Shown: one piece after another, positions 2,734 to 18,808 of the stretch
Layout of the letters: every line of letters starts with the position of its first letter
Numbering within the stretch: the stretch's first letter is position 1
Source: a virus
Lineage: Duplodnaviria; Heunggongvirae; Uroviricota; Caudoviricetes
Length of the DNA: 18,808 bases
Direction: 5' to 3' (one strand)
Virus record (IMG/VR): IMGVR_UViG_2531839477_000015
Span: 1-18,808 of that record
Notes under the pieces: model-generated
What the model was told of the DNA's origin: nothing
Seen by the model: the letters and a program-made list of their open reading frames with translations, nothing else
Database searches by the model: none
Made by a program: the position numbers and the translations under genes

Positions 2734-2798
2734 TTGGTGTTCTTTCAGTTCTTCAATTCGAATATTGGTTACATTGTTTTCATATATGAATAAATAAA

Positions 2799-2978: not shown

Positions 2979-3074
2979 ATCACTACCTCCAAAGCATGAG
3001 TGAGATGACAACGTAACATTGATTGGAGATTAACAATAGATTGCTGATGTAAAAGATATGTATAAGCTTCGCTT

Positions 3075-3707: not shown

Positions 3708-3708
3708 A

Positions 3709-4230: not shown

Positions 4231-4522
4231 TGGTTGCCTCCTTTGCTGGGCTTTCGAATGTATCAAACTCAAACAACTTAACTACGTCATCAAACAGGAC
4301 ATAATCGCCATCAGAATCTTCAGTCATGTCAGCGCCACAATCCTGACCGAACGAGTCACAACCATCCATATCAAGCTCGTATCGCTTGAGTTTTGCGATA
4401 TTTGATAAATTCAGCGCCAGTACAGCAAGGTCATAAACCTCATCAGCGGTATACCCGGCACCATGCCCATACATTTCAATACGGGATATGATTTCTTCTA
4501 CACGTTGTTTTGTGATCGTCAT
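4217..4522 (-). CDS. Hypothetical acidic protein (101 aa)
   Basis: ATG at 4520-4522 with AGGAAGGTGAG upstream; co-oriented and tightly packed within the pL operon. Confidence 0.55.
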   Translation of the reverse strand: MTITKQRVEEIISRIEMYGHGAGYTADEVYDLAVLALNLSNIAKLKRYELDMDGCDSFGQDCGADMTEDSDGDYVLFDDVVKLFEFDTFESPAKEATSEQD

Positions 4523-4980
4523 TTTTGCTCACCTTCCTGTTCTTCCAGAAAAATACGCATAGCCTCAAGCATCTCTTCGGTGTCATACGGAGACAGCTTG
4601 TCACGCAGGATGTGTTCAATGCTGTTAATGAACTTGCGGATTGCTTTGCGTTCAATTTCAGCCAGGAAAGCGTCGGTGGCTTGGGTTTCAGTAACATCAT
4701 CTTCCCATTCGCTAAACTCCTCACGACAAAAGTCATTAAATTCCTTCTCAGATTGCTTAAGCGAGGTATTTTCAGCAGCCATCTTCGCGCATTTAGCCTC
4801 AAGGTTATCAATCGTGATTCCAGCAGAACGACACTCCCGCAACGCCGTTTCCAGTTTTGATTCAAGTTCGCCGAACTTACGGACAAGATATTCAGCGTTT
4901 GTTTCGTTAACCTTTAAATCACTTGGGATGCATTTACCTTTCAGAAAACCATCCATCTCAATTAGTGTCATTTGTTTCAT
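4519..4980 (-). CDS. Hypothetical coiled-coil protein (153 aa)
   Basis: ATG at 4978-4980; stop overlaps the next start; charged, helix-prone sequence. Confidence 0.55.
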
Positions 4981-5141
4981 TTCTTCCCACTCCGCAACAT
5001 CGCATTCAGATATTTGTTGTCGTTAACAGAACCGAAACTCTTTCTTTTAAGCAATTCCTCTCTCGATGGCATTGGCTTTACGCGTTGGCGAATAATCATT
5101 TCTGCCGGAAGAATGCCGGGATTGTATGCAAGTCCTCTCAT
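4979..5141 (-). CDS. Small ORF (53 aa), translationally coupled
   Basis: Not in the >=60-aa track. ATG 5139-5141 overlaps the upstream stop (ATGA) and its own stop overlaps the next ATG; translation [54 protein letters not shown]. Confidence 0.35.
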
Positions 5142-5428
5142 GATTTACTCTCCACGAACTGGTCAATAGCCATGCTAAGTGACATACCTAAAGCTTCGAT
5201 ATGCTGCTGAATATCCTGTAGCGTCCGCGCCTGAGATAACAGAATTTCACGGTTGCATAACTCTTTAACCAGATGCTCAAACTTGCTGTAATAACCGATA
5301 CGGCTTAGTGTTTCTTTCCCTGCATTCTCGCCTTCTTTGATAATTCCTCTTTCGCTAAGAATCAGATCGTGTTTGGTTCCGGTAATAACGTATTTTCCGA
5401 GGTCGATGTTTAGCTTCATTGTTTTCAT
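5138..5428 (-). CDS. Hypothetical protein (96 aa)
   Basis: Start trimmed to ATG 5426-5428 ([14 protein letters not shown]...) with GAGGAA 8 nt upstream; the track's longer ORF would overlap the upstream gene. Confidence 0.55.
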
Positions 5429-5438
5429 TGTTAATTCC

Positions 5439-5732
5439 TCAGTCATTACTGATAGCGCCATAGCGTGAGCGGTAATTACGCAGGCGCGGGTCAATTTCAG
5501 GGAAGTGGGTATATGTGGCTTTGCGGAATGGTCGGATTGATGTCTGGTAAATTCGCTCGCGTTCTTTTTTCTCTGCAAGCCATATACAGTGGCGAAATTC
5601 CTTTTCATCTTTCGTTTCCTGCGGTAGAGACATTATCCGATCGTAGTTTTTTCTGAATTTATCCAGCACCTCCGATACGGAATTGCCGGAACAGCGGCGC
5701 GCGTCGTCCGCACCATACAGAGGCGCTGGCAT
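5439..5732 (-). CDS. Hypothetical protein (97 aa)
   Basis: ATG 5730-5732 with GGAG 6 nt upstream. Confidence 0.55.
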   Translation of the reverse strand: MPAPLYGADDARRCSGNSVSEVLDKFRKNYDRIMSLPQETKDEKEFRHCIWLAEKKERERIYQTSIRPFRKATYTHFPEIDPRLRNYRSRYGAISND

Positions 5733-5745
5733 GATTTTCTCCTGA

Positions 5746-6225
5746 TTAAATTGCGTGAATAGCGTGACGAGGGAATGGGAGAGTTACTGGTTCCTCGTCT
5801 GGGTAGATAGGTTTGTTATGTTTGTGCCACTCGACATGACATGACTTGCAGAGCCACATCACATCGGTTGGTTTGCTGTAGTCGCAGTGGTGCGCCTGTG
5901 GTTTACATTCTGATCCGCAGCACTCACATTGTGGTGGTCGGATTAGCTTACCGTCGCGCAAAAAATTACCCACAATGATGTGGGCTTTTCTTTTCCATGG
6001 GTTGCTCTGAATGAACCGCTTTTTGGCTGCGTTACACCGTTCTCTTCCGCGTTCCGATGATTGATATTCTCTCCTTGCTGATACTCGATGTGGCAATCCA
6101 GCGCGTTCTTTGTCGTATTCAGCCAGGCAAGCCCGGCAAGCGGCAGTTAATCCATCTCTGGATGCTCTTCTGATTTGAAAGTCCCTTTCTTCCTTCTGTT
6201 GATGGCATCTTGAGCAGACTTTCAT
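5746..6225 (-). CDS. HNH-family endonuclease with extra Cys pairs
   Basis: C-terminal CECCGSECKPQAHHCDYSKPTDVMWLCKSCHVEWH fits the HNH/zinc-finger pattern; ATG 6223-6225 with GGAG upstream. Confidence 0.6.
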   Translation of the reverse strand: MKVCSRCHQQKEERDFQIRRASRDGLTAACRACLAEYDKERAGLPHRVSARREYQSSERGRERCNAAKKRFIQSNPWKRKAHIIVGNFLRDGKLIRPPQCECCGSECKPQAHHCDYSKPTDVMWLCKSCHVEWHKHNKPIYPDEEPVTLPFPRHAIHAI

Positions 6226-6234
6226 ATTCAGCTC

Positions 6235-6708
6235 CTAGAACGGAATATCCGAATCGTCAAAATCCATAGGTGGTTCGCTGTGATTCCCCTGCTGCTGAGA
6301 TTGCTGTCTTTGTTGCTGACCGTTATTTCGCTGAGGTGAAGACTGTTCATTGCCTCCTTGCTTGCCACCAAGCATTTTCATGGTTCCACCAACGCCCACG
6401 ATGACTTCGGTAGTGAACCTATCCTGTCCGCTTTGATCCTGCCATTTTCTTGTCCGTAATTTGCCTTCAAGATAAACCTCTGAGCCTTTTCGCAGATATT
6501 CGCTGGCAATTTCTGCCAGTTTCCCGCTCATTACCACGCGGTGCCACTCCGTCTGCTCCTTTTGCTCTCCAGTTTGCTTATCACGCCATTGTTCTGACGT
6601 AGCAACTGTAAGGTTTGCAAATGCCGTTCCTGATGGTGAATATCTGATTTCTGGATCATGCCCAAGGCGACCAATAATGATCACCTTATTTACGCCTCTA
6701 CTTCCCAT
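6235..6708 (-). CDS. ssb: Single-stranded DNA-binding protein
   Basis: N-terminus [23 protein letters not shown]...TEWHRVV, Gln/Gly-rich linker and C-terminal [12 protein letters not shown] tail, matching SSB. Confidence 0.93.
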
Positions 6709-7416
6709 TTATGCCGCCTGTTTTAGTTCGTTAACTCTGATGTTCATTACCTGAACGCATTTAGCCTGCGCCTCCTCGTTGCCAGCCATTAATTGCCAGT
6801 CACGCTGATAACGCTCGATGAGTTTTTTCTTGTCAGTTTCTGTTGATGCATAATCGCTGAAGTCTTTCAGGATTTGTTCGCAGTCAACCGATGGAGATTT
6901 CTGGTTGGTATTTTCTGGTGATGGTTTGTTATCTGATGCTGGGATTGCCCATCCCGGCAGCGATGGAGGGAGCCAGTAAAATCCTGTTCCATCCTTGAGT
7001 TTTGCCCTGTGCCATCCCTGCTTTTTATCGAGAGATGTTTGTGCGAAACCTTCCTCAAGGTTATACAGATACCGACCGATTCCCCACTGAACGGCAGCGC
7101 GCTTCATTGCACCGGAACGACCACCTTTGACGGCTTCTACCTGCGTGTTTTCAGCAGCATCCCATTTGGTTACCCATTCGGAATCAATCTTGATTGATAT
7201 GCCGCATTCAACTCCGCCGTTGTTGGGAATATCGCGGTATTCATTGCGCCATCCTGCTTTGCCGCAAACATCGTCCAGGCGTTTCATGATTGCCCTGTTC
7301 GTGACATAAGCCAGCACCATAGCCCACACCTTTCCATCGCGTGTTTTACCGCTTTGCTGTATTCGCCATTCGATATCTTCAGGGCTGAATGGCTCATCGA
7401 ATTTGTTCAAATCCAT
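6709..7416 (-). CDS. Rad52/22-type single-strand annealing protein (recombinase)
   Basis: Motifs NRAIMKRLDDVCGKAGW and GGRSGAMKRAAVQWGIGRYLY match the Rad52-family signature; sits directly upstream of ssb. Confidence 0.75.
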   Translation of the reverse strand: MDLNKFDEPFSPEDIEWRIQQSGKTRDGKVWAMVLAYVTNRAIMKRLDDVCGKAGWRNEYRDIPNNGGVECGISIKIDSEWVTKWDAAENTQVEAVKGGRSGAMKRAAVQWGIGRYLYNLEEGFAQTSLDKKQGWHRAKLKDGTGFYWLPPSLPGWAIPASDNKPSPENTNQKSPSVDCEQILKDFSDYASTETDKKKLIERYQRDWQLMAGNEEAQAKCVQVMNIRVNELKQAA

Positions 7417-7424
7417 AATTCACC

Positions 7425-7595
7425 TCAGAATGGACACGGCCCAAGGAAATAACGCTGATTTAATACTTCGACTCGTGACAAATTAAGGCATACCCGCATT
7501 CCTTCGCGGTCGCCATTATGGCGATACCAGAGAGCTTTCTGCGTGTACATGCGTCTCTGTAACTTGCTCTCCTTCACTGTGGTTGCAAGTGACAT
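7425..7595 (-). CDS. Small ORF (56 aa), alternative reading of the region
   Basis: ATG 7593-7595 with AAGGAG upstream; overlaps the 7516-7672 ORF in another frame, so at most one of the two is likely real. Confidence 0.2.
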   Translation of the reverse strand: MSLATTVKESKLQRRMYTQKALWYRHNGDREGMRVCLNLSRVEVLNQRYFLGPCPF

Positions 7596-7672
7596 GAATA
7601 TCTCCTTCGTTACCGATTAAATCTTTCATCTGACGAATGAATTCTTCGTCTGACCAGTTATCTGTAAAACTC
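7516..7672 (-). CDS. Small ORF (52 aa), coupled to the kil-like ORF
   Basis: ATG 7672-7674 overlaps the stop of the upstream ORF (ATGA); weak Shine-Dalgarno. Confidence 0.3.
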
Positions 7673-7823
7673 ATTTCCTGCGATACCACGGAAGGTTGAT
7701 AGCTGATTTCATCGCTTTATTTGCTTCAAGCCACATTTTTGAATCACCAATAAATCTGGCTATTACTGCTTTGTTTTGTGCAGCACGAAGCACCTGGTGA
7801 TTGATGGCTATTTCATTGCGCAT
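7671..7823 (-). CDS. kil: Kil-like small protein (putative FtsZ/cell-division inhibitor)
   Basis: 50-aa ORF; segment IARFIGDSKMWLEANKAM resembles the FIGDEKM core I recall from lambda Kil; lies between cIII-like and the recombination genes as in lambda; GGAGG upstream. Confidence 0.4.
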   Translation of the reverse strand: MRNEIAINHQVLRAAQNKAVIARFIGDSKMWLEANKAMKSAINLPWYRRK

Positions 7824-7942
7824 AACGCCTCCAGTTGTTTCTTTGCTGCTCTGATTAATTGTTTAACTCGGCGTGATAATTCAGATTCGTGCGGGTAGAA
7901 AGCGGACATGACGCCGCTACCCGCGAACTGAAAGTGCATCAT
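7808..7942 (-). CDS. cIII: CIII-like protein (putative FtsH inhibitor / CII stabiliser)
   Basis: 44-aa ORF MMHFQFAGSGVMSAFYPHESELSRRVKQLIRAAKKQLEALCAMK; pattern M-x-[FY]-x-[IF]-AG ... ESxLxRRxxxLxR resembles lambda CIII; GAAGGAG 6 nt upstream. Confidence 0.5.
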   Translation of the reverse strand: MMHFQFAGSGVMSAFYPHESELSRRVKQLIRAAKKQLEALCAMK

Positions 7943-8017
7943 GGGTAACTCCTTCTGTTTGATTGCATAACGAAAACGCCTCGAGTGAAGCGTTATTGGT
8001 ATGCGGTAAAGCCGCGC

Positions 8018-8329
8018 TTAGGCGGCTGATGTTTCTTCTTTCAGGCTTTCGAGATATTTACGTGGGTCGTCGTAACATTGGCATTCGCTATACCAATCCA
8101 CCCAGCGATCAGTAAGCCCCATATCTGATAAATCTTCATCGGTAAGGCTCTCATCCCACATCTCAAGGCCGTTAGCATTGCAGTAATCAGGCTTGATGTT
8201 GTTGTCATACTGAAAGGCGTCATAATCAGCCAGTGCGTCCATCAGGCGAACACCCTCTTCAACACTTGCCACTTCTACAATGAACGGCTTCATAGGTACT
8301 TGCGGGATATGCCAGACACGTAATTTCAT
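8018..8329 (-). CDS. Hypothetical acidic protein (103 aa)
   Basis: Start trimmed to ATG 8327-8329 (MKLRVWHIPQ...) with GGAGGA upstream. Confidence 0.55.
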   Translation of the reverse strand: MKLRVWHIPQVPMKPFIVEVASVEEGVRLMDALADYDAFQYDNNIKPDYCNANGLEMWDESLTDEDLSDMGLTDRWVDWYSECQCYDDPRKYLESLKEETSAA

Positions 8330-8341
8330 ATATCCTCCGTC

Positions 8342-8370
8342 AAAAAAATTGCCCTCACATTGGAGGGCAA
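8342..8370 (-). terminator. Intrinsic terminator (tL-type) on the minus strand
   Basis: Minus-strand RNA UUGCCCUC-CAAUGU-GAGGGCAA followed by UUUUUUU; stem 8351-8356/8363-8368, U-run from plus A-run 8342-8348. Confidence 0.6.
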
Positions 8371-8430
8371 AGAAGATTTCCAATAATCAGAACAAGTCGG
8401 CTCCTGTTTAGTTACGAGCGACATTGCTCC

Positions 8431-8458
8431 GTGTATTCACTCGTTGGAATGAATACAC
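8431..8458. repeat. Inverted repeat (9-bp arms GTGTATTCA/TGAATACAC, 10-nt spacer)
   Basis: Perfect 9-bp inverted repeat directly 3' of the 156-aa gene stop; no U-tract follows. Confidence 0.5.
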
Positions 8459-8472
8459 AGTGCTTATTCGTA

Positions 8473-8943
8473 CTAATAAAACACCCAGTTTTCTGTTTCT
8501 TGGTTGTGTCCAAAGTTATATTCAATATCTGGTGTTGATGTATCAATATTCTTAATCCCATCAACAAGAGTTGATACAACAGCCAAATCTTGTTTGATTC
8601 TCATCAAATGGTATTTCTTCCGGCGCAATAAACTTTCAATGGCAAGTTTCTTCGTCGGGAACGCAAAAGATCTTTCTGCATTTTTTGCTACTTTCTTAAT
8701 TGCATATCTATTTCTCCTTTGTTTCCATTCCTGTAACCACTGATTTGGTGCTGGTTTAAAATTAACAATCCAATGCGCAGGAACCAACCATGCATAATGC
8801 TCTGTCTGATGAAAAGCTATATATTGAAGTGCGCATATTTTTATCCCATCTTCTTCAACTGTCGCCTGGAATCTCCAGAAAACAGGCATTCCATCATGTT
8901 CAGTTTCTGATTCAGGAAAAGGTACGCTCCATGATTTTGTCAT
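8473..8943 (-). CDS. Hypothetical protein (156 aa), N-proximal moron
   Basis: ATG 8941-8943 with GAGGTGA upstream; no motif recognised; a 60-nt sample (8701-8760) counts 37% GC versus 55% in a 60-nt int sample (1441-1500). Confidence 0.6.
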   Translation of the reverse strand: MTKSWSVPFPESETEHDGMPVFWRFQATVEEDGIKICALQYIAFHQTEHYAWLVPAHWIVNFKPAPNQWLQEWKQRRNRYAIKKVAKNAERSFAFPTKKLAIESLLRRKKYHLMRIKQDLAVVSTLVDGIKNIDTSTPDIEYNFGHNQETENWVFY

Positions 8944-8997
8944 ATCTCACCTCAAATAAGTGGTTTGCTGCGAAAATAAATCCGCTTAAGTTACCTG

Positions 8998-9135
8998 TTA
9001 TTTATCCCACCAAGTTCCGGATCTATCTATCCAGTTACACCAATCATCGACACTCCATTTTGTTGTGTCGCATTTTGGCAACTGGCATGAATATCTACCT
9101 TCTTTGTAAAGTCGGCGTTTGACTTTCTTGAGCAT
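8998..9135 (-). CDS. Small Cys-containing ORF (45 aa)
   Basis: Not in the track. ATG 9133-9135 with GAGGTGA upstream; translation MLKKVKRRLYKEGRYSCQLPKCDTTKWSVDDWCNWIDRSGTWWDK. Confidence 0.3.
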   Translation of the reverse strand: MLKKVKRRLYKEGRYSCQLPKCDTTKWSVDDWCNWIDRSGTWWDK

Positions 9136-9143
9136 GGCTCACC

Positions 9144-9449
9144 TCAATCGTAATAAGCTGGAATTGATTTTCCGCGTTGCTTCTGGCGGCCTGAACAAGT
9201 CACACCCATTTCACTGCGTGGCTTGCGGTAGTAAATACGGTTCTGTTTACGCTCGACTTCTTCTGCCTTCTTGCAGCGAAGGCTTCCGAGTGATGCTGCT
9301 TTATCTGCTCTGACGCAACCAGAGAGCTTTAGCGCAATTTTTCGTGCCAGTCGCTGCTCTTGCATTGCCTGTTCACGTTGATCCTGTCTGCGTGCTCTGC
9401 GGCGATTTCTGGCGTTATCGTCAGCCAGATATGTAATGACTACTGTCAT
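9144..9449 (-). CDS. N: Antitermination protein N
   Basis: N-terminal arginine-rich motif NARNRRRARRQDQREQ and C-terminus KPRSEMGVTCSGRQKQRGKSIP matching lambda N (...KPGERGITCSGRQKIKGKSIP); GGAGG 5 nt upstream; nutL lies in its leader. Confidence 0.85.
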   Translation of the reverse strand: MTVVITYLADDNARNRRRARRQDQREQAMQEQRLARKIALKLSGCVRADKAASLGSLRCKKAEEVERKQNRIYYRKPRSEMGVTCSGRQKQRGKSIPAYYD

Positions 9450-9557
9450 GTTGACCTCCGATGATTGACTTTGGCGGTGACGCGCCGGGTGCTTATCTTC
9501 CGGTTGCCGTCGTGCAGCTGCACTTCACGTCACCCCAAAACCAACTACTCTTTGGTT

Positions 9558-9598
9558 CCCGCATTTCGGCGGGACAATCCCATCAATGTTAAAGAGCC
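9558..9598 (-). promoter_or_regulatory. nutL (boxA GCTCTTTAACA + boxB hairpin CCCGC-CGAAAT-GCGGG)
   Basis: Read on the minus strand: boxA at plus 9587-9597 and boxB at plus 9558-9573; the boxB 16-mer is identical to the one downstream of cro. Confidence 0.7.
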
Positions 9599-9644
9599 TG
9601 CCAATATGTTCCGTTTGGCTACCAAACGTCCTGCTGATGGCTAA

Positions 9645-9673
9645 AGAATACTGTAGGTATTTTATTGTGTAAA
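9645..9673 (-). promoter_or_regulatory. pL promoter (putative)
   Basis: On the minus strand: -35 TTTACA (plus 9668-9673), 17-bp spacer, -10 TATTCT (plus 9645-9650); overlaps the two operator palindromes. Confidence 0.5.
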
Positions 9674-9731
9674 TACCCAAGGTATTTATTTTTGATGAAA
9701 TAATGATAAGCAAATGAATACAAAGGATATT
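9646..9731. promoter_or_regulatory. OL operators (2 clear + 1 degenerate site)
   Basis: AATAC-N5-GTATT at 9647-9661 and 9672-9686 (the latter a perfect 17-bp palindrome AAATACC-CAA-GGTATTT); weaker AATAC-N5-ATATT at 9717-9731. Confidence 0.6.
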
Positions 9732-9817
9732 TATTTTTTCGGTGTCTGCTTGTTCAGTGCTTTTTATGCGGGATATGTGAAGTGGATCCCGATAGCTATT
9801 GCTGCCGGGATTATAGG

Positions 9818-10186
9818 TTAGTCAGCGAAGGTTAAGACGAGAATTACCTTAATGATATCTGCTACAACAGACACGGCCATAGATAAACCAAAGACAATCC
9901 AAGCCATATAGATGTCTTCACTACCATCGTATAGAGTTCCGTAATCACTGGTGTAAGGCGTAAATGTCGCGCCTTGATACAACAGGTATAAGCTTGAACC
10001 ATAGAGGATAAATGCAGATATCCCTTGTATTGCTATGATCACTAGAATCATGAAACGAGCTGATCTATGCGCCCAAGCCTGGCTTATTTTTTCTGATAGA
10101 GATTTCGCAATAAAAGCATGCGCTAAGCCGTAAATTGTCGAGATTGCCAACATCCCAAAAAAGCTTGCTATAGCGGTTCCAACCAT
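9818..10186 (-). CDS. Small polytopic membrane protein in the rex position (downstream of cI)
   Basis: Start trimmed to ATG 10184-10186 (MVGTAIASFFGML...) with AAGGGG upstream (the track start is TTG); three or four hydrophobic helices; no recognised family. Confidence 0.65.
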   Translation of the reverse strand: MVGTAIASFFGMLAISTIYGLAHAFIAKSLSEKISQAWAHRSARFMILVIIAIQGISAFILYGSSLYLLYQGATFTPYTSDYGTLYDGSEDIYMAWIVFGLSMAVSVVADIIKVILVLTFAD

Positions 10187-10203
10187 AATCGCCCCTTGCG
10201 TGA

Positions 10204-10920
10204 TCAAACCAGCCTTAGTTTTGTCTCAATTGCAACGCCTATAATCTTGCAGTTTCCATTGATTGGCACGAGAGGCCATGCAGGATTAAGTCCCTTGAGG
10301 TATTTATTTCCGCCGTCGATTATCAGCTTCTTGAATGTTGCTTCGTTAGAGTCAGAAAGTTTTGCTATGACCAAGCTGCCGTTGATCGCCTCCCTTCCGG
10401 TATCGAAAAGAACGAATGTTCCCTCTGGAATGCTTAACCCAACCGGTGCCGTCATTGAATCACCTTCCACTTTAAGCCAGAACGCATTACCTTGAATATG
10501 CGCGTCAGACTCAAGCCAAACATCTATGTCTTTAATGGTGTATGGTTCGCATGCTTCACACCACGAGCCAGCCTGGATACTGCTTAACACCGGATACCTC
10601 TTTCCTGCTCTGTATTCCCCTGCATACCTTACGTTGGCATCGCTCTTAAGGCTTTCTGCCTGTTCTGCAACCTTGGCAGCAATTGACTGGCTAAAATCAG
10701 CAATTGAGACTTGCAACAGTCGTGCAAAACCAGATGCAACCTCAACGTTTAGCGCGTTTCTGCCATTAAGATAATGCCCTACCGCTCCTTGGGTGATACC
10801 CAGTTCATCCGCGATTGAGTATTGGGTTATCCCCAATTCTTTCTTTTTTGACTCATACAAAGCCTTAAGCCGCTTAGCGTCTTCGAGCTGTTCTGTCGTC
10901 AGTGATTTTTTATTTTCCAT
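10204..10920 (-). CDS. cI: CI-type prophage repressor (HTH + LexA/S24-like autocleavage domain)
   Basis: N-terminus LTTEQLEDAKRLKALYESKKKELGITQYSIADELGITQGAVGHY parallels lambda CI; C-terminal domain with conserved Ser/Lys context (WLKVEGDSMTAP ... TFKKLI); divergent from cro across the operators. Confidence 0.93.
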   Translation of the reverse strand: MENKKSLTTEQLEDAKRLKALYESKKKELGITQYSIADELGITQGAVGHYLNGRNALNVEVASGFARLLQVSIADFSQSIAAKVAEQAESLKSDANVRYAGEYRAGKRYPVLSSIQAGSWCEACEPYTIKDIDVWLESDAHIQGNAFWLKVEGDSMTAPVGLSIPEGTFVLFDTGREAINGSLVIAKLSDSNEATFKKLIIDGGNKYLKGLNPAWPLVPINGNCKIIGVAIETKLRLV

Positions 10921-10931
10921 AGCTTAATTCT

Positions 10932-10996
10932 AATAGCTAAGGTACTTAAACTAAAAATACCCTGAGTATTGATTGCTTTGAATACCTGTAGTATTC
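10932..10996. promoter_or_regulatory. OR operators (OR3-OR2-OR1) with divergent pRM and pR
   Basis: AATAC-N5-GTATT at 10956-10970 and 10981-10995, degenerate AATAG-N5-GTACT at 10932-10946; centre spacing 24-25 bp; possible leaderless pRM with -10 TAGAAT (plus 10927-10932) about 7 nt before the cI ATG. Confidence 0.6.
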
Positions 10997-10997
10997 T
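10969..10997 (+). promoter_or_regulatory. pR promoter (putative)
   Basis: -35 TTGATT (10969-10974), 17-bp spacer, -10 TATTCT (10992-10997), the same -10 hexamer as pL; overlaps OR1/OR2. Confidence 0.55.
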
Positions 10998-11026
10998 TTG
11001 TTCATGGTTAATAACGGAGAGTGCAT

Positions 11027-11221
11027 ATGATTCGAATGACACTTGCCGATTACGCCAAAATCCATGGACAGGCTAAAGCAGCCAGTGACTTTGGTGTAAT
11101 CCAGTGCGCTATCAGCAAGGCCATTCTGGCAGGCCGTAACATTATGGTTACGGTAAAGCCTGATGGCAGTGTGATTGGAGAGGAGGTTCGTCCTTTCCCA
11201 AGCAACAAGAAAAACAAATAG
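11027..11221 (+). CDS. cro: Cro repressor
   Basis: [33 protein letters not shown]...[13 protein letters not shown] parallels lambda Cro (…YQSAINKAI…EEVKPFPSNKK); ATG 11027 with ACGGAGAG upstream. Confidence 0.85.
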
Positions 11222-11227
11222 TAACAC

Positions 11228-11270
11228 CGCTCTTTAACAGTCATGGTCCTCATTCCCGCCGAAATGCGGG
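11228..11270 (+). promoter_or_regulatory. nutR (boxA CGCTCTTTAACA + boxB CCCGC-CGAAAT-GCGGG)
   Basis: boxA 11228-11239 matches the boxA consensus; boxB hairpin 11255-11270; located 7 nt after the cro stop. Confidence 0.75.
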
Positions 11271-11329
11271 AATACAACGCGCATCAGTTGGTGCGCATAA
11301 CTTCTTATTTGTTAAGGAAATACTTACAT

Positions 11330-11608
11330 ATGCAACTTACAAGTACTCGCAAGAAAGCGAATGCAATTACAAGCAACATCCTAAATCGAATTGCTGTACG
11401 TGGTCAGCGAAAGGTTGCTGATGCATTAGGGATCAATGAATCACAAATTTCGCGATGGAAAGACAGCTTTATCCCAAAGATGGCCATGCTTCTGGCTGTT
11501 CTTGAATGGGGAGTTGTTGATGATGAGATGGCGAGACTTGCTCAGCAGGTGGCATCGATTCTCACAAAAGAAAAACGCCCAGCTGTTGGTAGCAGTCTGG
11601 ACGCTTAA
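11330..11608 (+). CDS. cII: CII transcriptional activator
   Basis: Start trimmed to ATG 11330 (upstream AAGGAAATACTTACATATG matches the lambda cII initiation region as recalled); ...SQISRWKDSFIPKMAMLLAVLEWGVVDDEMARLAQQVASILT parallels lambda CII. Confidence 0.9.
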   Translation: MQLTSTRKKANAITSNILNRIAVRGQRKVADALGINESQISRWKDSFIPKMAMLLAVLEWGVVDDEMARLAQQVASILTKEKRPAVGSSLDA

Positions 11609-11668
11609 GCACACTGTGTTACGCCAAGTAACAGGAGTAATTATGCCAGGACAAACCAAGCAAGTAAA
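11567..11668 (-). ncRNA. OOP-like antisense RNA (putative)
   Basis: Minus-strand hairpin CGUCCAG...CUGGGCG + UUUUUCUUUU inside the cII 3' end (plus about 11570-11600), analogous to the lambda oop terminator; possible promoter -35 TTGTCA (plus 11687-11692) and -10 TTTACT (plus 11663-11668). Confidence 0.3.
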
Positions 11669-12047
11669 CACCGGCATAAAGGCCGGTGACAAGTTCGAAA
11701 CCGTATATCCATTTATCTTCGTATGCACAGATTATCAGTCTTATGACGGCAACGTGCATACCGATGAGCGCTGGATTGGCGGTTGTCACAAAAATTATGA
11801 GCCAGCCGATTGTGGTTATGGTGATCAGTGTTTTTACACCGCTGATGCTGAAGGAAAGAGAATTCTTGAGGTTCTGGCAGTGGTGGAAATGCCAGGCAAC
11901 TGGCAGCGCAGAATCATTTATTCGTGCCACCTCATAGAGCCTGAAGGCAAGGAGAGGAAAGGAAGGAAGGCTTACACAGTCACCGAATCAAGGTTTTTAA
12001 AAATGTCTACTGGTTACTTCGCTGATTACGAAGTAGAGGAGGCTTAA
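11643..12047 (+). CDS. Hypothetical Cys-rich protein (134 aa) inserted between cII and O
   Basis: ATG 11643 with AGGAG 5 nt upstream (the track ORF is over-extended into cII); Cys/His-rich segment [40 protein letters not shown]; no family recognised. Confidence 0.6.
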
Positions 12048-12193
12048 TGACAAAACCACTCAGTCCTTACCAGGACAAAATTCACAAACACATACTACGT
12101 GATCGCTTCCTGTCCAGCTTCAAGCAGCCTGGTCGATTCCGGGCTGAGTTGGAAAAAGTGAAGCTGATGCAGAAGGAGAAAGGTCATGAGTAA
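12047..12193 (+). CDS. Small ORF (48 aa), translationally coupled
   Basis: Not in the track. ATG 12047 overlaps the upstream stop (TAATG) with GAGGAGG 5 nt upstream; translation [48 protein letters not shown]; 3' end overlaps the O-like start. Confidence 0.4.
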
Positions 12194-13046
12194 TCTTGCA
12201 ACCGTAACACATTTAAGGCCTTCACAACGGCCTGTGGAGCGTCGTGTGGCAGAAGTTGAAGATGGTTATACCCGTCTTGCAAATGCCCTGTATGAAGAGC
12301 TTATCGGCGCAGATTTAACGAAAAATCAGAGCAAGGTTGCCCACGCCATATGCCGTAAAACATACGGCTACGGTAAAAAGATGGATCGCATCTCTGATAG
12401 TCAGTTAGCTCAAATTACCAGGCTGCCAAGACAGAAGGTAAACAAGGCCAAGAATGAGCTTATCGCGATGAAGGTTATCCTTCGCGAAGGCCAGCAAATC
12501 GGGCCTAACAAGAACATCGAGGAATGGCAAATAGAAGGGTGTCACTACTCTGGTGATAATGTCACTGCATTGGTGACAAAAAGTGTCACCAAAACGGTGA
12601 CAGCGCTGTCACCAAAACAGGGACACACAAAAGAAACTATTACAAAAGAAAAAAGAAATAATAAAAACACTATGTCCGAAAGTGTTCGGACGGAGTGTGA
12701 AAAATCACATGACCGTCACGAAGAAACCGACAAGGCATTCGAGGAAATATTCTGGTGTGCAGGCATGCGGAAAGCCGGGAAGAAAAACGCAGCTTCGGCA
12801 TTCAGAACACAGTTCAGGGAATGGCGTAAAACTACCAGGGGTACGGCAAGCGAGTTTGCCACGATGCTGGCAGAAGACATCGCATGCAGGAATGGTAAGC
12901 AGTTCGGATTCGACAGGTTGTTACCATCGAGCTACCTGAACGGTCAACGCTGGAACGACGAGAAGCCAGAAACTATTCAACCACAATCCAAACCATCATC
13001 CGCAATCACCGTATCGAAAACTGGCTACGTGTTTTTCGACAGGTGA
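12186..13046 (+). CDS. Replication initiator, lambda O-like N-terminal domain with unrelated C-terminal domain
   Basis: N-terminal region [58 protein letters not shown]...GPNKNIEEW parallels lambda O; iterons inside the gene; C-terminal half not O-like. Confidence 0.85.
12551..12672. repeat. Putative ori: iteron cluster plus AT-rich tract inside the O-like gene
   Basis: Six alternating copies of GGTGACA/TGTCACC-type heptamers between 12551 and 12622 (tggtgataa, tgtcactgc, ttggtgacaaaaa, gtgtcaccaaaac, ggtgacagcgc, tgtcaccaaaac), followed by the A-rich tract 12628-12672. Confidence 0.6.
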
Positions 13047-13153
13047 ACCATGAAATCAAAAATCAAATCGCTACTGGTCGCTGGTTATAACCACGGCTGG
13101 TTAAGTATTTCGTTTGTCGATTTCTGGTTTAAAAATCTCAATCTGAGGGAATC

Positions 13154-13648
13154 ATGATGAGCCTTGAAGTTGGAGAATATATACCTGGTTATGAGGGTAA
13201 ATACTCTGTAACCAAAGACGGTCGTGTTTATTCACATTTAAGAGGCAGGTTTTTGAATCCATCTCCGGATAACAAGGGTTATCTAAGAGTCACTTTGTGT
13301 TCCGATGGGATTCAGAAGACGTTAAAAGTTCATCGTCTTGTAGCTCAATTATTTATCCCAAATCCGTATTGCAAGCCAGAAGTAAATCATATCAACGGCG
13401 ACAAATCGGATAACGCCATTTGGAACTTGGAATGGTGTACCTGCTCAGAGAATTTAAAACATGCTTTTAGCATCGGACTGAAAAGCGCAAAGGGAGTTTT
13501 TAATGGTAGGGCAAAACTATCTGAAACTGATGTGATTGATATCAGGAATTCTGTTGGTATGAAACTAAGCGAACTATCCACTAAATACGGAGTGAGTGAA
13601 ATGCAAATTTCCACAATCCGCAGAGGAAACGCATGGAGGCACCTTTGA
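13154..13648 (+). CDS. HNH homing-type endonuclease (NUMOD4-like N-terminus, HNH_3 core, C-terminal HTH)
   Basis: YIPGYEGKYSVTKDGRVYS...HRLVAQLFIPNP...VNHINGDKSDNAIWNLEWCTCSEN; by-eye AT-rich; sits between the O-like gene and the primase-helicase. Confidence 0.8.
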   Translation: MMSLEVGEYIPGYEGKYSVTKDGRVYSHLRGRFLNPSPDNKGYLRVTLCSDGIQKTLKVHRLVAQLFIPNPYCKPEVNHINGDKSDNAIWNLEWCTCSENLKHAFSIGLKSAKGVFNGRAKLSETDVIDIRNSVGMKLSELSTKYGVSEMQISTIRRGNAWRHL

Positions 13649-15525
13649 GTCCATCAGAACTTAGCGACCTGCTTTGGGCGCAGGTTGACAGGGTGGCTCC
13701 GCACCTGTTGCCAAACGGCAAGAAAGAGGGGCATGAGTGGGTTGCCGGTAACGTCAACGGTGACAAGGGAAACAGCCTTAAGGTCAACCTTAGCGGCAAG
13801 AAAAAATGGGCTGATTTCGCCGAGGGAGACGGCGGTGACATGCTTGATTTGTGGATGGCATGTCGTGGAATTAACCTGCATCAGGCTATGCAGGAAGCGA
13901 AAGCATTTCTCGGTATCAAGGATGACGATCACCATTTCGATGCCAAACGTGAGAAGAAATTCTCCAGACCTGATCGCAAGAAAATCGCCCGCTACGTTAC
14001 CAGGACAGAATCCCATCTTGAGTACCTGCAATCGCGTGGCATATCGCCAGAAGTCGTAAAGCGCTACGAGGTTGTCAGCGGCAAGGTGTGGAATGGAGAA
14101 CGAGAACTGGATGCTCTGGTGATTCCGTACAAACGCGATGGTGAGTTGTTGCAGGTCAAGCGAATCAGCACTGAGCGCTCGGACGGGAAGAAAGTCATTA
14201 TGGCAGAAGGTGATTGCGAACCTTGTCTGTTCGGATGGCAGGCTCTGGACGCTGGCGTGAGGGCGGTTGTACTTTGCGAAGGCGAAATTGATTGTATGAG
14301 CTATGCGCAATACGGCATCTCGGCGTTATCCGTGCCGTTTGGTGGCGGGAAAGGCGCTAAGCAACAGTGGATTGAGTTTGAGTATCACAACCTCGACAGG
14401 TTTGAGGAAATATTCATCTCGATGGACGTTGATGATGTTGGTCGTGAAGCCGCAAGGGAAATCGCAAGCCGACTCGGTGAACATCGTTGCCGTCTTGTTA
14501 CTCTGCCGTACAAGGACATCAACGAATGCCTGATGAACGGTGTTACCGAGGATGAAATCTGGCAGTACATCGGCACGGCATCCTACTTCGATCCTGAAGA
14601 ACTCTACAGCGCGCGAGAGTTTTACCAGGACACTATCAACGCTTTCTACGGCAAGCAGCAGTATCTGTTTAATCCACCGTGGGAATCTCTGGCAGATAAA
14701 TTCCAGTTCCGTGAGGCCGAGTTGACGCTGGTCAATGGTGTGAACGGTCACGGAAAAACGGAGGTTGTCGGGCATATGGCACTTGAGGCAATGCGTCAGG
14801 GGGTGAAGACGTGCATCGCGTCACTTGAGCTGAAGCCTGGTATTCTCCTTAAGCGCCTTACCCGTCAGGCAACGTGCTGCAAGATGCCGCCAGTGCTGGA
14901 AATTGACTCTGCATTTAAATTTTATGACGAAAGACTTTGGGTGTTTGGCCTGACCGGAACGGCGAAATCCGACAGGCTGATCGAAATATTCGACTACGCT
15001 CGCCGCCGATACGGGATCCAGTTATTCATCATCGACAGCCTGATGAAATGTGGCATAGGCGACGATGACTATAACGGGCAGAAGGCGTTTGTTGACTCGA
15101 TTTGCGACTTCAAAAACAAAACAAACTCCCACGTCATTCTCGTTACTCACTCGCGAAAAGGAGACAGCGAAGAAAAACCAACCGGGAAAATGGACGTAAA
15201 AGGCTCTGGAGCGATAACAGACCTGACAGACAACCTTTTCATCATCTGGCGTAACAAGGCTCGCGAGAGAGCGTTACAGAGAGTTCAGAGTGGTGAAAAG
15301 ATGTCAGAGAAGGACGAACAGCTACTGGCATCTCCGGCATCTGTTTTGATGCTTGAAAAACAACGTAACGGCGAAGGTTGGGAAGGTGGCGTCCCGTTGT
15401 TCCTTGACGAGCAATCGCACCAGTTCCTGCAACTTGAATCAGGATCGCCATATAGCTACATCGCCAATATGCCGAAATCGGAATATGACGAGGCGTGGCG
15501 ACAGGAAAACGTGACGGAGTATTAA
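13633..15525 (+). CDS. Bifunctional primase-helicase (Toprim primase + DnaB/SF4-like helicase)
   Basis: 630 aa; Toprim-like VVLCEGEIDCMS; Walker A LVNGVNGHGKTEV; Walker B-like LFIIDSLMK; occupies the lambda P position. Confidence 0.85.
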   Translation: MEAPLSPSELSDLLWAQVDRVAPHLLPNGKKEGHEWVAGNVNGDKGNSLKVNLSGKKKWADFAEGDGGDMLDLWMACRGINLHQAMQEAKAFLGIKDDDHHFDAKREKKFSRPDRKKIARYVTRTESHLEYLQSRGISPEVVKRYEVVSGKVWNGERELDALVIPYKRDGELLQVKRISTERSDGKKVIMAEGDCEPCLFGWQALDAGVRAVVLCEGEIDCMSYAQYGISALSVPFGGGKGAKQQWIEFEYHNLDRFEEIFISMDVDDVGREAAREIASRLGEHRCRLVTLPYKDINECLMNGVTEDEIWQYIGTASYFDPEELYSAREFYQDTINAFYGKQQYLFNPPWESLADKFQFREAELTLVNGVNGHGKTEVVGHMALEAMRQGVKTCIASLELKPGILLKRLTRQATCCKMPPVLEIDSAFKFYDERLWVFGLTGTAKSDRLIEIFDYARRRYGIQLFIIDSLMKCGIGDDDYNGQKAFVDSICDFKNKTNSHVILVTHSRKGDSEEKPTGKMDVKGSGAITDLTDNLFIIWRNKARERALQRVQSGEKMSEKDEQLLASPASVLMLEKQRNGEGWEGGVPLFLDEQSHQFLQLESGSPYSYIANMPKSEYDEAWRQENVTEY

Positions 15526-15554
15526 ATGACCATCTACATCACTGAGCTAATAAC

Positions 15555-15586
15555 AGGCCTGCAGGTAATCGCAGGCCTTTTTATTT
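15555..15586 (+). terminator. Intrinsic terminator (tR2-equivalent) after the replication genes
   Basis: Perfect 8-bp stem AGGCCTGC/GCAGGCCT (15555-15562 / 15571-15578), 8-nt loop, then TTTTTATTT. Confidence 0.8.
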
Positions 15587-15602
15587 GGGGGAGAGGGAAG
15601 TC

Positions 15603-16019
15603 ATGAAAAAACTAACCTTTGAAATTCGATCTCCAGCACATCAGCAAAACGCTATTCACGCAGTACAGCAAATTCTTCCAGACCCAACCAAACCAATCGT
15701 AGTAACTATTCAGGAACGCAACCGCAGCATTCGGCAAAATGCACGCCTTCACGCGATGCTATCTGAAATAAGTAAGAAGGCTACATATCATGGAAAAGCA
15801 AGAAATATTGAGTTTTGGAAGGGGTTATTCGTTTCTGGTTGGCAGATTGCAACCAACCAGCACCCTGAGATTATATCAGGGTTAGAAGGTGAGCTAATAA
15901 ACATCAGAGAGAGTACGGCGACTCTATCTGTAAAAAAAATATCCGAAATAATGGACTACATAGAAGCATATTGTGCCATGAACTCAATTCATCTTAGCGA
16001 ATGGAGGAATTATGATTGA
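15603..16019 (+). CDS. ninB: NinB (Orf-family recombination mediator)
   Basis: MKKLTFEIRSPAHQQNAIHAVQQILPDPTKPIVVTIQERNRS matches the lambda NinB N-terminus as recalled; remainder is a diverged homologue; the track start at 15585 is TTG. Confidence 0.85.
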   Translation: MKKLTFEIRSPAHQQNAIHAVQQILPDPTKPIVVTIQERNRSIRQNARLHAMLSEISKKATYHGKARNIEFWKGLFVSGWQIATNQHPEIISGLEGELINIRESTATLSVKKISEIMDYIEAYCAMNSIHLSEWRNYD

Positions 16020-16614
16020 GGTTTGGGTAGATATCGAAGGAATTCCATTTTATCAGGTTAGCAATAAAGGAAATTTCAGGTCTATTACGAGGGAAATTAC
16101 AGTAACATCAACCAGACAGAGGCCATATAAGAAAATAATTAATGGCACTAGCGTAAAACCATTCAAGTGCAAGTCGACAGGATATCTTCAAATAAAGGTA
16201 TACGGTAAGAAATACAGCGCCCACAGGATAGTTGCGAAAGCATTCTGTACAGGGTTCTGTGATGGCTTGGTAGTTAATCACAAAAATGGGCAAAGAGATG
16301 ACAATAGGGCTGAAAACCTTGAATGGGTATCTCATTCTGAAAACTCAAAGCACGGATATAAACAAAATGGAAGAATACCTATATCGCTAGGTAAATTTAG
16401 TGGTGATCATCCTGCCAGTAAAGCTGTTATTTCTACTGACATGAAAACTGGGGAGGAGGTTTATTATGAAGCAGCTATGGATGCTGTCAGAGAAGGATTT
16501 GATAGTTCGTCAATTAGTCGTTGCTGTAATGGCGAAAGCTCATATCACAAAGGAAGATTCTGGCGATTTGCAAATGAAACAATGAAAGCGAGATGGGGAG
16601 ATCGGGCTGCATGA
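16012..16614 (+). CDS. HNH homing-type endonuclease inserted at the ninB 3' end
   Basis: NUMOD4-like GIPFYQVSNKGNFRS and HNH_3 HRIVAKAF...VNHKNGQRDDNRAENLEWVSHSEN; AT-rich by eye; C-terminal KARWGDRAA equals the lambda NinB C-terminus as recalled. Confidence 0.8.
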   Translation: MIEVWVDIEGIPFYQVSNKGNFRSITREITVTSTRQRPYKKIINGTSVKPFKCKSTGYLQIKVYGKKYSAHRIVAKAFCTGFCDGLVVNHKNGQRDDNRAENLEWVSHSENSKHGYKQNGRIPISLGKFSGDHPASKAVISTDMKTGEEVYYEAAMDAVREGFDSSSISRCCNGESSYHKGRFWRFANETMKARWGDRAA

Positions 16615-17138
16615 CTATCAAATCAAATACGCCAGCACACGACAAGGACTGCTGGCAAACGCCGCTTTGGCTTTTTGATGCACTGGATATTGAGTTTGGA
16701 TTCTGGCTGGATTCGGCAGCGAGCGACAAAAATGCTCTGTGTGCTCACTGGCTAACTGAGGCCGACGACGCACTCAATTCTGAGTGGGTAAGCCACGGTG
16801 CAATCTGGAATAACCCACCGTACAGCAATATCAGGCCGTGGGTGGAAAAAGCTGCTGAGCAGTGCATACAACAGCGACAGACGGTAGTTATGCTTGTGCC
16901 AGAGGATATGTCAGTCGGATGGTTCAGCAAGGCTCTGGAGAGTGTCGACGAAGTTCGCATTATCACTGATGGACGGATTAATTTTATCGAACCATCGACA
17001 GGGCTGGAGAAGAAGGGAAACAGCAAAGGCTCCATGCTGCTGATTTGGCGACCGTTCATCAGTCCTCGACGGATGTTTACTACCGTATCCAAAGCGGCAT
17101 TGATGGCGATCGGGCAGGGCGTCAGGAGGGCGGCATGA
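16611..17138 (+). CDS. Phage Dam-family DNA N6-adenine methyltransferase
   Basis: Catalytic motif AIWNNPPYS; N-terminus [26 protein letters not shown] typical of phage Dam family; ATG 16611 overlaps the HNH stop (ATGA). Confidence 0.8.
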
Positions 17139-17311
17139 GGCGACAGCGACGAAGTTTCACCGACATCATCTGCGAAAACTGCAAATACCTTCCAACGAAA
17201 CGCTCCAGAAATAAACGCAAGCCAATCCCAAAAGAATCTGACGTAAAAACCTTCAATTACACAGCTCACCTGTGGGATATCCGGTGGCTAAGATATCGTG
17301 CGAGGAAATGA
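17135..17311 (+). CDS. ninE: NinE
   Basis: [58 protein letters not shown] matches lambda NinE as recalled; AGGAGG 5 nt upstream; ATGA overlap with the methyltransferase stop. Confidence 0.85.
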
Positions 17312-17313
17312 CA

Positions 17314-17655
17314 ATGGATTATTCACAGTTAAGTGATTTTGAAATTAACAGAATGGTAGGAGACATAATTTTTAAAGGCCTTTGGGCAAGTAAACCGGAA
17401 ACATCAGGGAATAACACCAACAAATGGTATTACGGAAATGCTGATACAACTTTTGAGCCATTAAATCATTTGCCTGACTACTGCAATGATCCGAGCGCTT
17501 CATGGCCGATTATTGAGAAATACAGGATTTCTATCTTAGACCAGTTAACTGAATGGTGTGTGGATGCAAAAGGCGTAAGCCCAATATTTGATACCAGACC
17601 TCTCCGCGCCGCCATGATTGTCTTTCTCCTGATGCAGGAGGCCAATAATGCTTAG
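17314..17655 (+). CDS. nin-region hypothetical protein (possibly NinX/DUF2591-like)
   Basis: ATG 17314 ([16 protein letters not shown]...) with GAGGA 7 nt upstream; family assignment is tentative. Confidence 0.55.
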
Positions 17656-17842
17656 CCCATCTCAATCCCTTCAATACCTGAAAGGAAGCATAGAGCGGGC
17701 TTCAATGTGCACAGAGTGGATTCTATCTAGGTTTAGCGCATACAGAAGATTGCCGGTAAAGGGCATGCCAAGCAAGTCGATGCTGCATATGCAAAAGAAT
17801 GCGCGCTGGAAGGTATGGCGAGAACACAGGTTATGTGGCTGA
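17648..17842 (+). pseudogene. Chimeric ninF-like 5' fragment fused to non-homologous sequence
   Basis: First ~19 residues [19 protein letters not shown] resemble the lambda NinF N-terminus as recalled; the rest lacks the NinF Cys motifs; another frame (17737-17865) encodes ...[26 protein letters not shown], resembling the YbcO C-terminus. Confidence 0.4.
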
Positions 17843-17861
17843 AAGAGGGGATTATTAAGGC

Positions 17862-18224
17862 GTGAATACCTACAGCATCACATTACCTTGGCCTCCGAGC
17901 AATAATCGCTATTACCGCCATAATCGCGGGCGCACGCACGTCAGCGCAGAGGGGCAGGCATACCGCGATAACGTCGCCCGAATCATTAAAAACGCAATGC
18001 TAGATATCGGCCTGGCTATGCCTGTGAAAATCCGCATTGAGTGCCACATGCCGGATCGCCGTCGCCGTGACCTGGATAATCTGCAAAAAGCCGCTTTTGA
18101 CGCACTCACTAAAGCAGGTTTCTGGCTGGATGATGCTCAGGTCGTTGATTACCGCGTTGTGAAGATGCCTGTTACCAAAGGTGGGAGGCTGGAACTGACC
18201 ATCACCGAAATGGGGAATGAATGA
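17862..18224 (+). CDS. rusA: RusA Holliday-junction resolvase
   Basis: 120-aa [40 protein letters not shown]...[15 protein letters not shown], recognised as RusA; GTG start. Confidence 0.9.
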
Positions 18225-18361
18225 TGTTTGAGTTTAATATGGCAGAACTTCTTCGCCACCGCTGGGGGCGTCTGCGCTTATATCGTTTCCCCGGTTCTGT
18301 TTTGACCGATTACCGAATACTGAAGAATTACGCCAAAACACTGACAGGAGCAGGAGTATGA
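18221..18361 (+). CDS. Small protein (46 aa), YlcG-like
   Basis: Not in the track. ATG 18221 overlaps the rusA stop (ATGA); translation [46 protein letters not shown]; same position as ylcG after rusA in the DLP12 prophage. Confidence 0.45.
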
Positions 18362-18445
18362 AGTCAGAGATAACAATCAACTAATACTGTTTTGTTGATT
18401 TTTGCTTGTAATTGGCGTTCTGGTCTGATTTTGTGGAGTAAGTTG

Positions 18446-18808
18446 ATGCGTGATATTCAGATGGTTCTGGATCGTTGGGGAGCATGGGCGGCGAGTGATA
18501 GTTCAGGAGTAGATTATTCTCCTATAGCTGCTGGGTTTAAAGGGCTTCTTCCCTATACAAGCAAAACACGTCAGGCTTGTTCAGATAGTGATGCATTAAT
18601 TATTGAAGGTTGTCTTGCACGTCTAAAGCAAAAAAGACCTGATGAGCATTCGCTTCTTGTGGCACATTATTTATACAGAATATCCAAGCGTAAGATTGCA
18701 AAGGCGCGTGGAAAGGATGAGAAACTAATACGCATTGAGATACAGATGGCTGAGGGGTTTATTGATGGATGCCTTTCAATTCTGGATGTTAAACTTGAAA
18801 TGGATTAG
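18446..18808 (+). CDS. Antitermination protein Q (phage 82 / QuuD-type family)
   Basis: MRDIQMVLDRWGAWAASDSSGVDYSPIAAGFKGLLPY... typical of this Q family; ATG 18446 with GGAG 7 nt upstream (track start is TTG); stop TAG at 18806-18808. Confidence 0.75.
   Translation: MRDIQMVLDRWGAWAASDSSGVDYSPIAAGFKGLLPYTSKTRQACSDSDALIIEGCLARLKQKRPDEHSLLVAHYLYRISKRKIAKARGKDEKLIRIEIQMAEGFIDGCLSILDVKLEMD

Follow-up and report, generated by a model that had tools for sequence, protein, structure and literature searches.

We analyzed the interval between cII and the O-like replication initiator in an 18,808-nucleotide (nt) stretch of tailed-phage DNA (IMG/VR record IMGVR_UViG_2531839477_000015, positions 1 to 18,808; the entire stretch is called the window below), which covers the early region of a lambdoid prophage of the P22/HK620 type. 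The subject is a gene in this interval for a protein of 134 amino acids (aa), here called gene X, which is a genuine protein-coding accessory gene, more than a chance open reading frame (ORF). It is followed by a 48-aa ORF, and the start of X appears to double as a promoter on the opposite strand. The interval and the gene behind it contain the following features:

11330-11608, plus strand: cII (Pfam Phage_CII, 4.4e-43)
11566-11632, minus strand: predicted oop-like antisense RNA of ~64 nt (comparison with lambda oop, and folding)
11640-11668, minus strand: pO-like sigma-70 promoter, TTTACT-17 nt-CATAAT (promoter scan)
11643-12047, plus strand: gene X, 134 aa, isoelectric point (pI) 5.2 (PHROG 30464, the family of HK639 gp53)
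12036-12049, plus strand: GAGGAGG Shine-Dalgarno sequence (12036-12042) and TAATG stop/start overlap (read from the sequence)
12047-12193, plus strand: 48-aa ORF, basic (pI 10.1; Pfam DUF2740, PF10872, 9e-29)
12186-13046, plus strand: O-like replication initiator (Pfam Phage_rep_O, PF04492, 1.1e-37; TIGR01610)
12540-12625: ori-type iterons inside the O-like gene (repeat search)

Gene X starts with an ATG at 11643, 5 nt behind an AGGAG (11633-11637), and ends with a TAA at 12045-12047 that shares an A with the ATG of the 48-aa ORF. This ORF in turn overlaps the O-like gene by 8 nt (ATGAGTAA). The initial annotation, made without database searches, had described both ORFs, both overlaps and the GAGGAGG site, and all are present. 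It had put about 580 base pairs (bp) between cII and O, for which we measured 577 bp (cII stop to O start codon), and both genes are extra relative to lambda, as it had stated. We are highly confident of the anatomy of the region as read here, that is, of the gene order, the mosaic joint and the cassette.

Relative to the closest relatives, only one of the two genes is new. When positions 11243-12300 were compared with phages by megablast, HK620 and HK630 matched only at query positions 1-338 and 805-951, and the first HK620 match ends at query position 338, which is window position 11580. The nearest Escherichia coli prophage (strain LCP17S3_I1) has the order cII-DUF2740-O with nothing interposed, and its O protein (WP_000067062.1) is also that of the X-carrying strain MS 115-1. 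Alignment with relatives places the left breakpoint inside the 3' end of cII, just past ACAAAAGAAAAA, at about 11576-11580, and the right breakpoint exactly at the DUF2740 ATG (12047), where homology to HK620 and LCP17S3 resumes at ATGACAAAAC. By this comparison, a cassette of ~470 bp (~11580 to 12046) has been swapped in relative to the nearest relatives. It would comprise a lambda-like cII tail, a different oop allele, the pO promoter and gene X, with the left breakpoint falling on the putative U-run of the oop terminator and the right one on the start codon of the resident DUF2740 gene. HK639 has an unrelated cII and unrelated replication genes, and it has the stretch from ~11610 through TAATG in common with the window, so that X and a short segment upstream of it make up the mobile unit. 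The insertion is thus not one of two genes, as originally proposed, but a cassette with X as its only new gene (together with a different cII tail and oop allele) and with breakpoints at ~11580 and 12047.

Because of the cassette, the last ~30 nt of cII in the window (11576-11608, lambda-like from ~11580) encode a lambda-like C-terminal tail (KEKRPAVGSSLDA). The HK620-type tail is, from the DNA alignment, roughly KEKAPKNGEFFEA, and the two cII alleles are otherwise 94% identical. The C-terminus of lambda CII is a degradation tag for the FtsH protease. Given the tail swap, CII stability could differ between the window and HK620-type alleles.

The 48-aa ORF had been taken for part of the novel insertion and assigned to no family. 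It scores 99.4 bits on Pfam DUF2740 (gathering cut-off 27); its identity is 83% with P22 Orf48 and 98% with HK620 HkaW and with the HK022 and HK630 counterparts (the HK620 record notes similarity to HK022 gp53). Judged by sequence, it is P22 Orf48/HK620 HkaW, a common and by no means novel protein that is an ordinary companion of O-type initiators. DUF2740 proteins were found in 127 phage records, and in the listed records with annotation the gene adjoins an O/gene-18-type replication gene; the 8-nt overlap with the start of that gene is the same in HK620. In P22/HK620-type phages, DUF2740 is the first gene past cII and its own start carries the pO -10 element (GGAGTAATTATG), whereas in the window X holds the post-cII slot and the GAGGAGGCTTAATG that precedes the 48-aa ORF is no longer a -10 element. 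In PHROG 1913, and in RefSeq phage records that go back to it, DUF2740/HkaW/P22 Orf48 bears the label 'tail protein'. This label is implausible and in our view a mislabel, because the position of DUF2740 between cII and O/gene 18 is invariant. We suggest that the 48-aa ORF be named DUF2740 or P22 Orf48-like, and not 'tail protein'.

Several observations establish X as a coding gene. In comparisons with eight homologues (51-91% identity), the ratio of nonsynonymous to synonymous substitution rates (dN/dS) was 0.05-0.20 where dS was unsaturated, and the proportions of nonsynonymous and synonymous differences (pN and pS) were 0.04-0.32 and 0.51-0.91, respectively. The X frame (+1) is the sole frame without internal stops in all nine sequences compared, and every other frame on either strand contains 1-17 of them. 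Three overlapping mechanical ORFs (11436-12047 and 11686-11937 on the plus strand, 11619-11930 on the minus strand) were rejected as genes because their frames hold stops in homologues. Checks on two doubts that the initial annotation had raised showed that X is not a conserved core gene of known function, and that translation is not confined to an overlapping frame.

The guanine-cytosine (GC) content of X (0.459) resembles that of the window (0.461) and of cII, DUF2740 and O (0.452-0.467). A promoter and terminator scan found neither element on the plus strand between cII and O, so X would be made from the pR transcript. This agrees with the placement in the rightward early operon that had been proposed, as do the stop/start overlaps that chain the genes.

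Gene X is rare. Among 5,426 complete E. coli genomes, only two, CFSAN061770 and MS 115-1, contain its DNA (both at 100% identity), whereas the surrounding 5 kb are matched in 1,354 of them. A protein search found X in 7 of 50,697 phage records. Of 185,579 species-representative genomes, 4 have a close relative. There was no match among 72,556 plasmids, and the idea that X might be a plasmid leading-region gene was rejected for this reason. The locus is a case of ordinary lambdoid mosaicism, with a rare, catalogued and uncharacterised accessory gene in the post-cII slot.

The initial statement that X belongs to no recognisable family holds for Pfam and NCBIfam, in which no match was found, and fails for PHROG, in which X is a full-length member of PHROG 30464, 'unknown function' (E-value 2.7e-95, residues 1-134 on profile positions 1-134). 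It is also 91% identical over all 134 residues to gp53 of Escherichia phage HK639 (YP_004934083.1). Like X, HK639 gp53 directly follows a cII-type gene and has a TAATG overlap with the next gene, and the two share a 33-nt upstream segment (ACACTGTGTTACGCCAAGTAAC..GGA.TAATTATG). HK639 differs in that the upstream activator is another, 181-aa CII-like protein, and the next gene encodes an unrelated 287-aa replication protein, with no DUF2740. An exhaustive search found 73 representative clusters homologous to X at an E-value of 0.001 or below, and a profile search found 165, all unnamed and without a Pfam domain except for a single fusion to DUF3850/ASCH (P0068). Members were found in phages and prophages alone, from those of Enterobacterales to cyanophages. 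One further match, a DUF11/DUF7507 repeat protein of 1,028 aa with nine matched stretches (P0079), was treated as a spurious low-complexity beta-hairpin match. PADLOC profiles of anti-phage defence matched neither X, nor DUF2740, nor three longer homologues. In the literature library searched, no paper names DUF2740, PF10872 or phrog_30464, and 'hkaW' matched unrelated words; papers that mention HK639 are, by their titles and abstracts, not about gp53. In annotation, X should be linked to HK639 gp53 and PHROG 30464.

The genomic contexts of the family are diverse. IMG/VR and annotated phages and prophages together gave 79 close loci with usable context. X directly follows a cII-type gene, of one of two unrelated types, in 49 of them. 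In 47 of these 49 loci, X and the start of the next gene share 1-8 nt; in the other two, X is 13 or 26 nt upstream of that start. The next gene belongs to one of three unrelated initiator families or is a DUF2740-type small ORF that is followed by O; in a Yersinia prophage (L005, fetched separately), a T5orf172 gene lies between X and O. In ~30 Klebsiella-type loci, a 131-aa form without the first 11 residues is found in a nin-like region, with O, P and a Ren/MarR-like gene before it and NinB downstream. More distant relatives (25-35% identity) are among the small ORFs of several kinds of early operon: in ERF/YqaJ operons, next to integrase/excisionase genes, between NinX and NinG, upstream of a methylase and DnaB, and in a cyanophage early operon. 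Since X precedes at least four different downstream arrangements and also occurs in nin-type loci, it is an exchangeable early-operon accessory gene that is not bound to one replication system. It resembles the accessory genes of nin regions and other mosaic sites, which are likewise sporadic, non-core and swapped at gene boundaries, and the Klebsiella-type form indeed lies in a nin-like region.

In three distant, unrelated prophage loci, a gene for a Lar restriction-alleviation protein (PF14354) is adjacent to the X relative or at most ~4 kb away (L087, 6391-6687; L090, 5504-6595; L099, 962-1534). The first of these prophages also has a pair of SMODS and S_4TM genes resembling a cyclic-oligonucleotide-based antiphage signalling system (CBASS) at its end.

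The start of X is of interest also at the DNA level. On the minus strand, positions 11668-11640 read TTTACT-17 nt-CATAAT, with a TG ahead of the -10 element. This -10 is the reverse complement of the X start region ATTATG, and codons 7-9 (Q-V-N) hold the -35. Each of the 29 distinct cII-adjacent X loci has a promoter at the same position (8-10 of 12 matches, spacer of 17-18 nt), as against none of 20 nin-type X loci. In the Yersinia-type X (N-terminus MQNTGSVNS), the -10 is shifted to TATTAT with the spacing kept. The 11-residue N-terminal extension of X, which holds the -35, is present only where X adjoins cII, which suggests selection on those codons at the DNA level. The first 26 nt of X would thus double as a leftward pO promoter, a role that the O start plays in lambda, where CATAATGACTCCTGTTGATAG is found at that position.

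The predicted promoter would drive an oop-like RNA antisense to cII. Downstream of it on the minus strand, TACTCCTGTTACTTGG parallels the lambda GACTCCTGTTGATAG where oop RNA starts, and by this homology the RNA start is predicted at 11632. The 5' end can form a 5-bp stem-loop (GUUAC-UUGGC-GUAAC), and the whole RNA has a folding energy of -21.7 kcal/mol. The putative terminator is a hairpin of -13 kcal/mol followed by TTTTTCTTTT at 11575-11566, inside the 3' end of cII, so that the predicted RNA overlaps ~40 nt of cII. Of 31 distinct X-carrying arrangements, the window among them, 26 have a hairpin of varying sequence with a T-run 53-81 nt downstream of the promoter, and so do the lambda O and HK620 hkaW controls. 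Rfam at gathering thresholds found no family in the window, and a relaxed scan of 11200-12400 returned only a chance-level match to STnc310 (plus strand, E-value 3.1). In HK639, an 'M3-like RNA' is annotated between cII and gp53 (37910-37969, or 2931-2990 of our locus L001); it coincides with the oop-like RNA predicted there, a minus-strand hairpin of -15 kcal/mol with a U-run.

In lambda, oop RNA is transcribed from pO within the N-terminal end of O, ends at a hairpin, overlaps cII by 52 bases and nullifies CII activity, and it lowers CII expression via RNase III (PMC5869508). The arrangement in the window is similar in that the leftward promoter is set into the beginning of the first gene past cII, across its ribosome site, start codon and initial codons, that its core is near-identical (CATAAT-(G/T)ACTCCTGTT), and that the short predicted RNA ends at a GC hairpin and U-run within the 3' end of cII. 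It differs from lambda in that X and not O hosts the promoter, in the length of the RNA (~64 nt predicted, versus a 77-nt stretch folded for lambda), in the shorter overlap with cII and in the allele of the 5' stem-loop. What can be exchanged would then be the promoter-bearing gene, with the oop/pO unit remaining beside cII.

The distance from pO to the iterons also differs, being ~350 bp in lambda and ~900 bp in the window. The lambda pO also modulates pR transcription and replication, and lambda plasmids are reported to be severely impaired in replication once 6-500 bp are inserted between pO and ori (PMC3985674). In the LCP17S3_I1 prophage, with the same O, the distance is ~500 bp. An identical O allele with pO at either ~500 or ~900 bp from the iterons bears on the spacing claim made for lambda (PMC3985674). 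If the prediction is right, the insertion of X shifts pO by ~400 bp relative to an identical O and ori, and would be a natural counter-example to strict pO-ori spacing.

An AlphaFold2 model of X was built with a 21-sequence alignment. The model is confident, with a mean predicted local distance difference test (pLDDT) score of 84.5 and a predicted template modelling (pTM) score of 0.67, and is all-beta (seven strands) apart from a single short helix at the C-terminus. At the N-terminus, pLDDT is below 50 for residues 1-4 and averages 47 over the first ten. Foldseek found nothing below an E-value of 0.14 for the model in the PDB, and a search of the PDB by sequence (single sequence and 32-member profile) found nothing below 0.4. 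The single match in BFVD is an unnamed phage protein (E-value 1e-5). Small beta-barrels of the SH3, Tudor and chromo type (CarD N-terminal domain, UvrD/PcrA C-terminal Tudor domain) aligned with about half of the model, at scores under homology level and without sequence similarity.

We tentatively consider X to be a non-enzymatic accessory binder of the host-takeover or anti-defence type that acts early. In the pR operon, the order would be cII, the oop-like RNA with pO, X, DUF2740 and O. The pR delayed-early transcript would supply X, and by translational coupling ribosomes could move on from X to DUF2740 and O. The protein would then bind a host or phage macromolecule early in infection, and would be dispensable. 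A binding or adaptor role is favoured because X is acidic, cytoplasmic and compact, with a beta fold and conserved aromatic residues and without conserved catalytic or ligand residues. The anti-defence or host-takeover reading is consistent with the sporadic early-operon distribution and the occasional adjacency to Lar. Taken jointly, the mosaic anatomy and an early accessory binding role for X are somewhat better supported than not; by itself, the functional class is somewhat less likely than not. The wider proposal, that X founds a phage-restricted family of more than 165 clusters with a beta-barrel without solved relative and an early anti-defence or host-takeover binding role, is doubtful.

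A core replication factor or a zinc protein is unlikely. The latter was suggested by the Cys and His residues of X (C28, H39, C48, H49, C57, C63, C95 and H96, all but H39 counting in its favour), which the initial annotation had read as a cluster beginning with C-x20-CH. The residues are present, with a trivial miscount as the first gap is x19. In 21 close Enterobacterales homologues, C48 never varies and C57 and C95 hardly do, but C28, H49, C63 and H96 vary even there. In 32 diverse members, P23, W44, G47, G71, R90, P100 and Y129 are invariant and no Cys or His is so or nearly so, with four members (P0055, P0057, P0061 and P0068) lacking even C48. The proposed cluster is therefore not conserved as a motif at either level, and a metal site is unsupported. 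The structure prediction that had been recommended gave the all-beta model. Pfam and NCBIfam returned no zinc-finger family, and the beta-barrel-like model has no match to a knuckle or treble clef. A Cys/His metal-binding regulatory protein is thus very improbable, and we suggest that the metal-binding idea be dropped from the annotation. We give as little credit to a classical moron expressed from the repressed prophage, for example for superinfection exclusion. The sporadic distribution and the insertion at a gene boundary would fit, but X differs from morons in having no own promoter, no own terminator and no compositional difference (its GC content equals that of its neighbours), and is thus not a strict moron. 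It is embedded in the pR operon, to whose other genes it is apparently coupled in translation, and the repressor shuts this operon off in lysogens.

Two other alternatives are improbable, though less so. X could be a replication accessory factor that modulates, for example, origin binding or helicase recruitment. It lies between cII and replication genes in the 49 cII-adjacent loci, with the short overlaps already described, and a distant homologue (in L099) is upstream of DnaB and an HTH_36 initiator. Yet X is paired with at least four unrelated downstream arrangements, the identical O protein works without X in the LCP17S3_I1 prophage, the ~30 Klebsiella-type loci have X after P, other relatives are found in recombination or integrase-proximal operons, and the neighbourhood is far more common in E. 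coli than X. With similar probability, X could be a nucleic-acid binder with single-stranded DNA, RNA or modified bases as its ligand, and would then act early in infection on nucleic acid of the phage or the host. The homologue P0068 carries an N-terminal fusion to DUF3850/ASCH, a domain that has a PUA-like fold and is usually predicted to bind nucleic acid. In structure, the model bears a weak resemblance to PC4, SSB and Tudor/KOW-type barrels. The family conserves aromatic residues (W44 and Y129, with F24 and F118 nearly so) together with R90, and there is a basic patch KERKGRK at residues 103-109. Against this, X is acidic overall, and the fusion is a single case among more than 165 clusters.

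Some points also weigh against an early accessory binder in the mosaic arrangement described. The oop-like RNA and pO are predicted solely from the sequence, and the proposed function of X is deduced from its surroundings, its composition and the fact that it lacks motifs for catalysis or ligand binding. X directly precedes replication genes in 49 of the 79 close loci, as would suit a replication-linked role, and the retention of C48, C57 and C95 among close Enterobacterales members would suit a lineage-specific site. Lar adjacency is seen in only three of ~10 distant contexts, and could be due to chance in gene-dense early regions.

The interest of X rests on the absence of functional and structural relatives, on its restriction to early operons and on DNA that would be both promoter and coding sequence. 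With no Pfam model, no structural relative and an occurrence only in temperate-phage early operons, X is a cheap candidate for screening, and anti-defence and host-takeover proteins keep emerging from this class of early-operon genes.

Other genes of the window complete the early-region gene map:

10204-10920, minus strand: cI-type repressor
11021-11221, plus strand: cro
13154-13648, plus strand: HNH/NUMOD4 endonuclease
13633-15525, plus strand: toprim primase-helicase

The cro-cII interval contains, at 11229-11275, a nutR-like boxA (CGCTCTTTAAC) followed by a boxB-type hairpin (TTCCCGC-CGAAAT-GCGGGAA), as read from the letters; the HK620 record has nutR and tR1 annotated at the equivalent place. 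The origin-type region within the O-like gene (12540-12651) consists of four iterons TGTCAC-N7-GTGACA at 20-24 bp spacing and then two copies of the A-rich ACAAAAGAAA. These iterons also account for spurious minus-strand 'terminator-like' matches in the scan. Relative to the LCP17S3_I1 prophage, the HNH/NUMOD4 gene, which encodes a homing endonuclease, is inserted exactly at the start codon of the primase-helicase gene, and the prophage of MS 115-1 likewise is without this insertion. The HNH/NUMOD4 gene has a GC content of 0.40, versus 0.47-0.51 in its flanks, and at the insertion the N-terminus of the helicase is changed from MTPSELSDL in LCP17S3_I1 to MEAPLSPSELSDL in the window.

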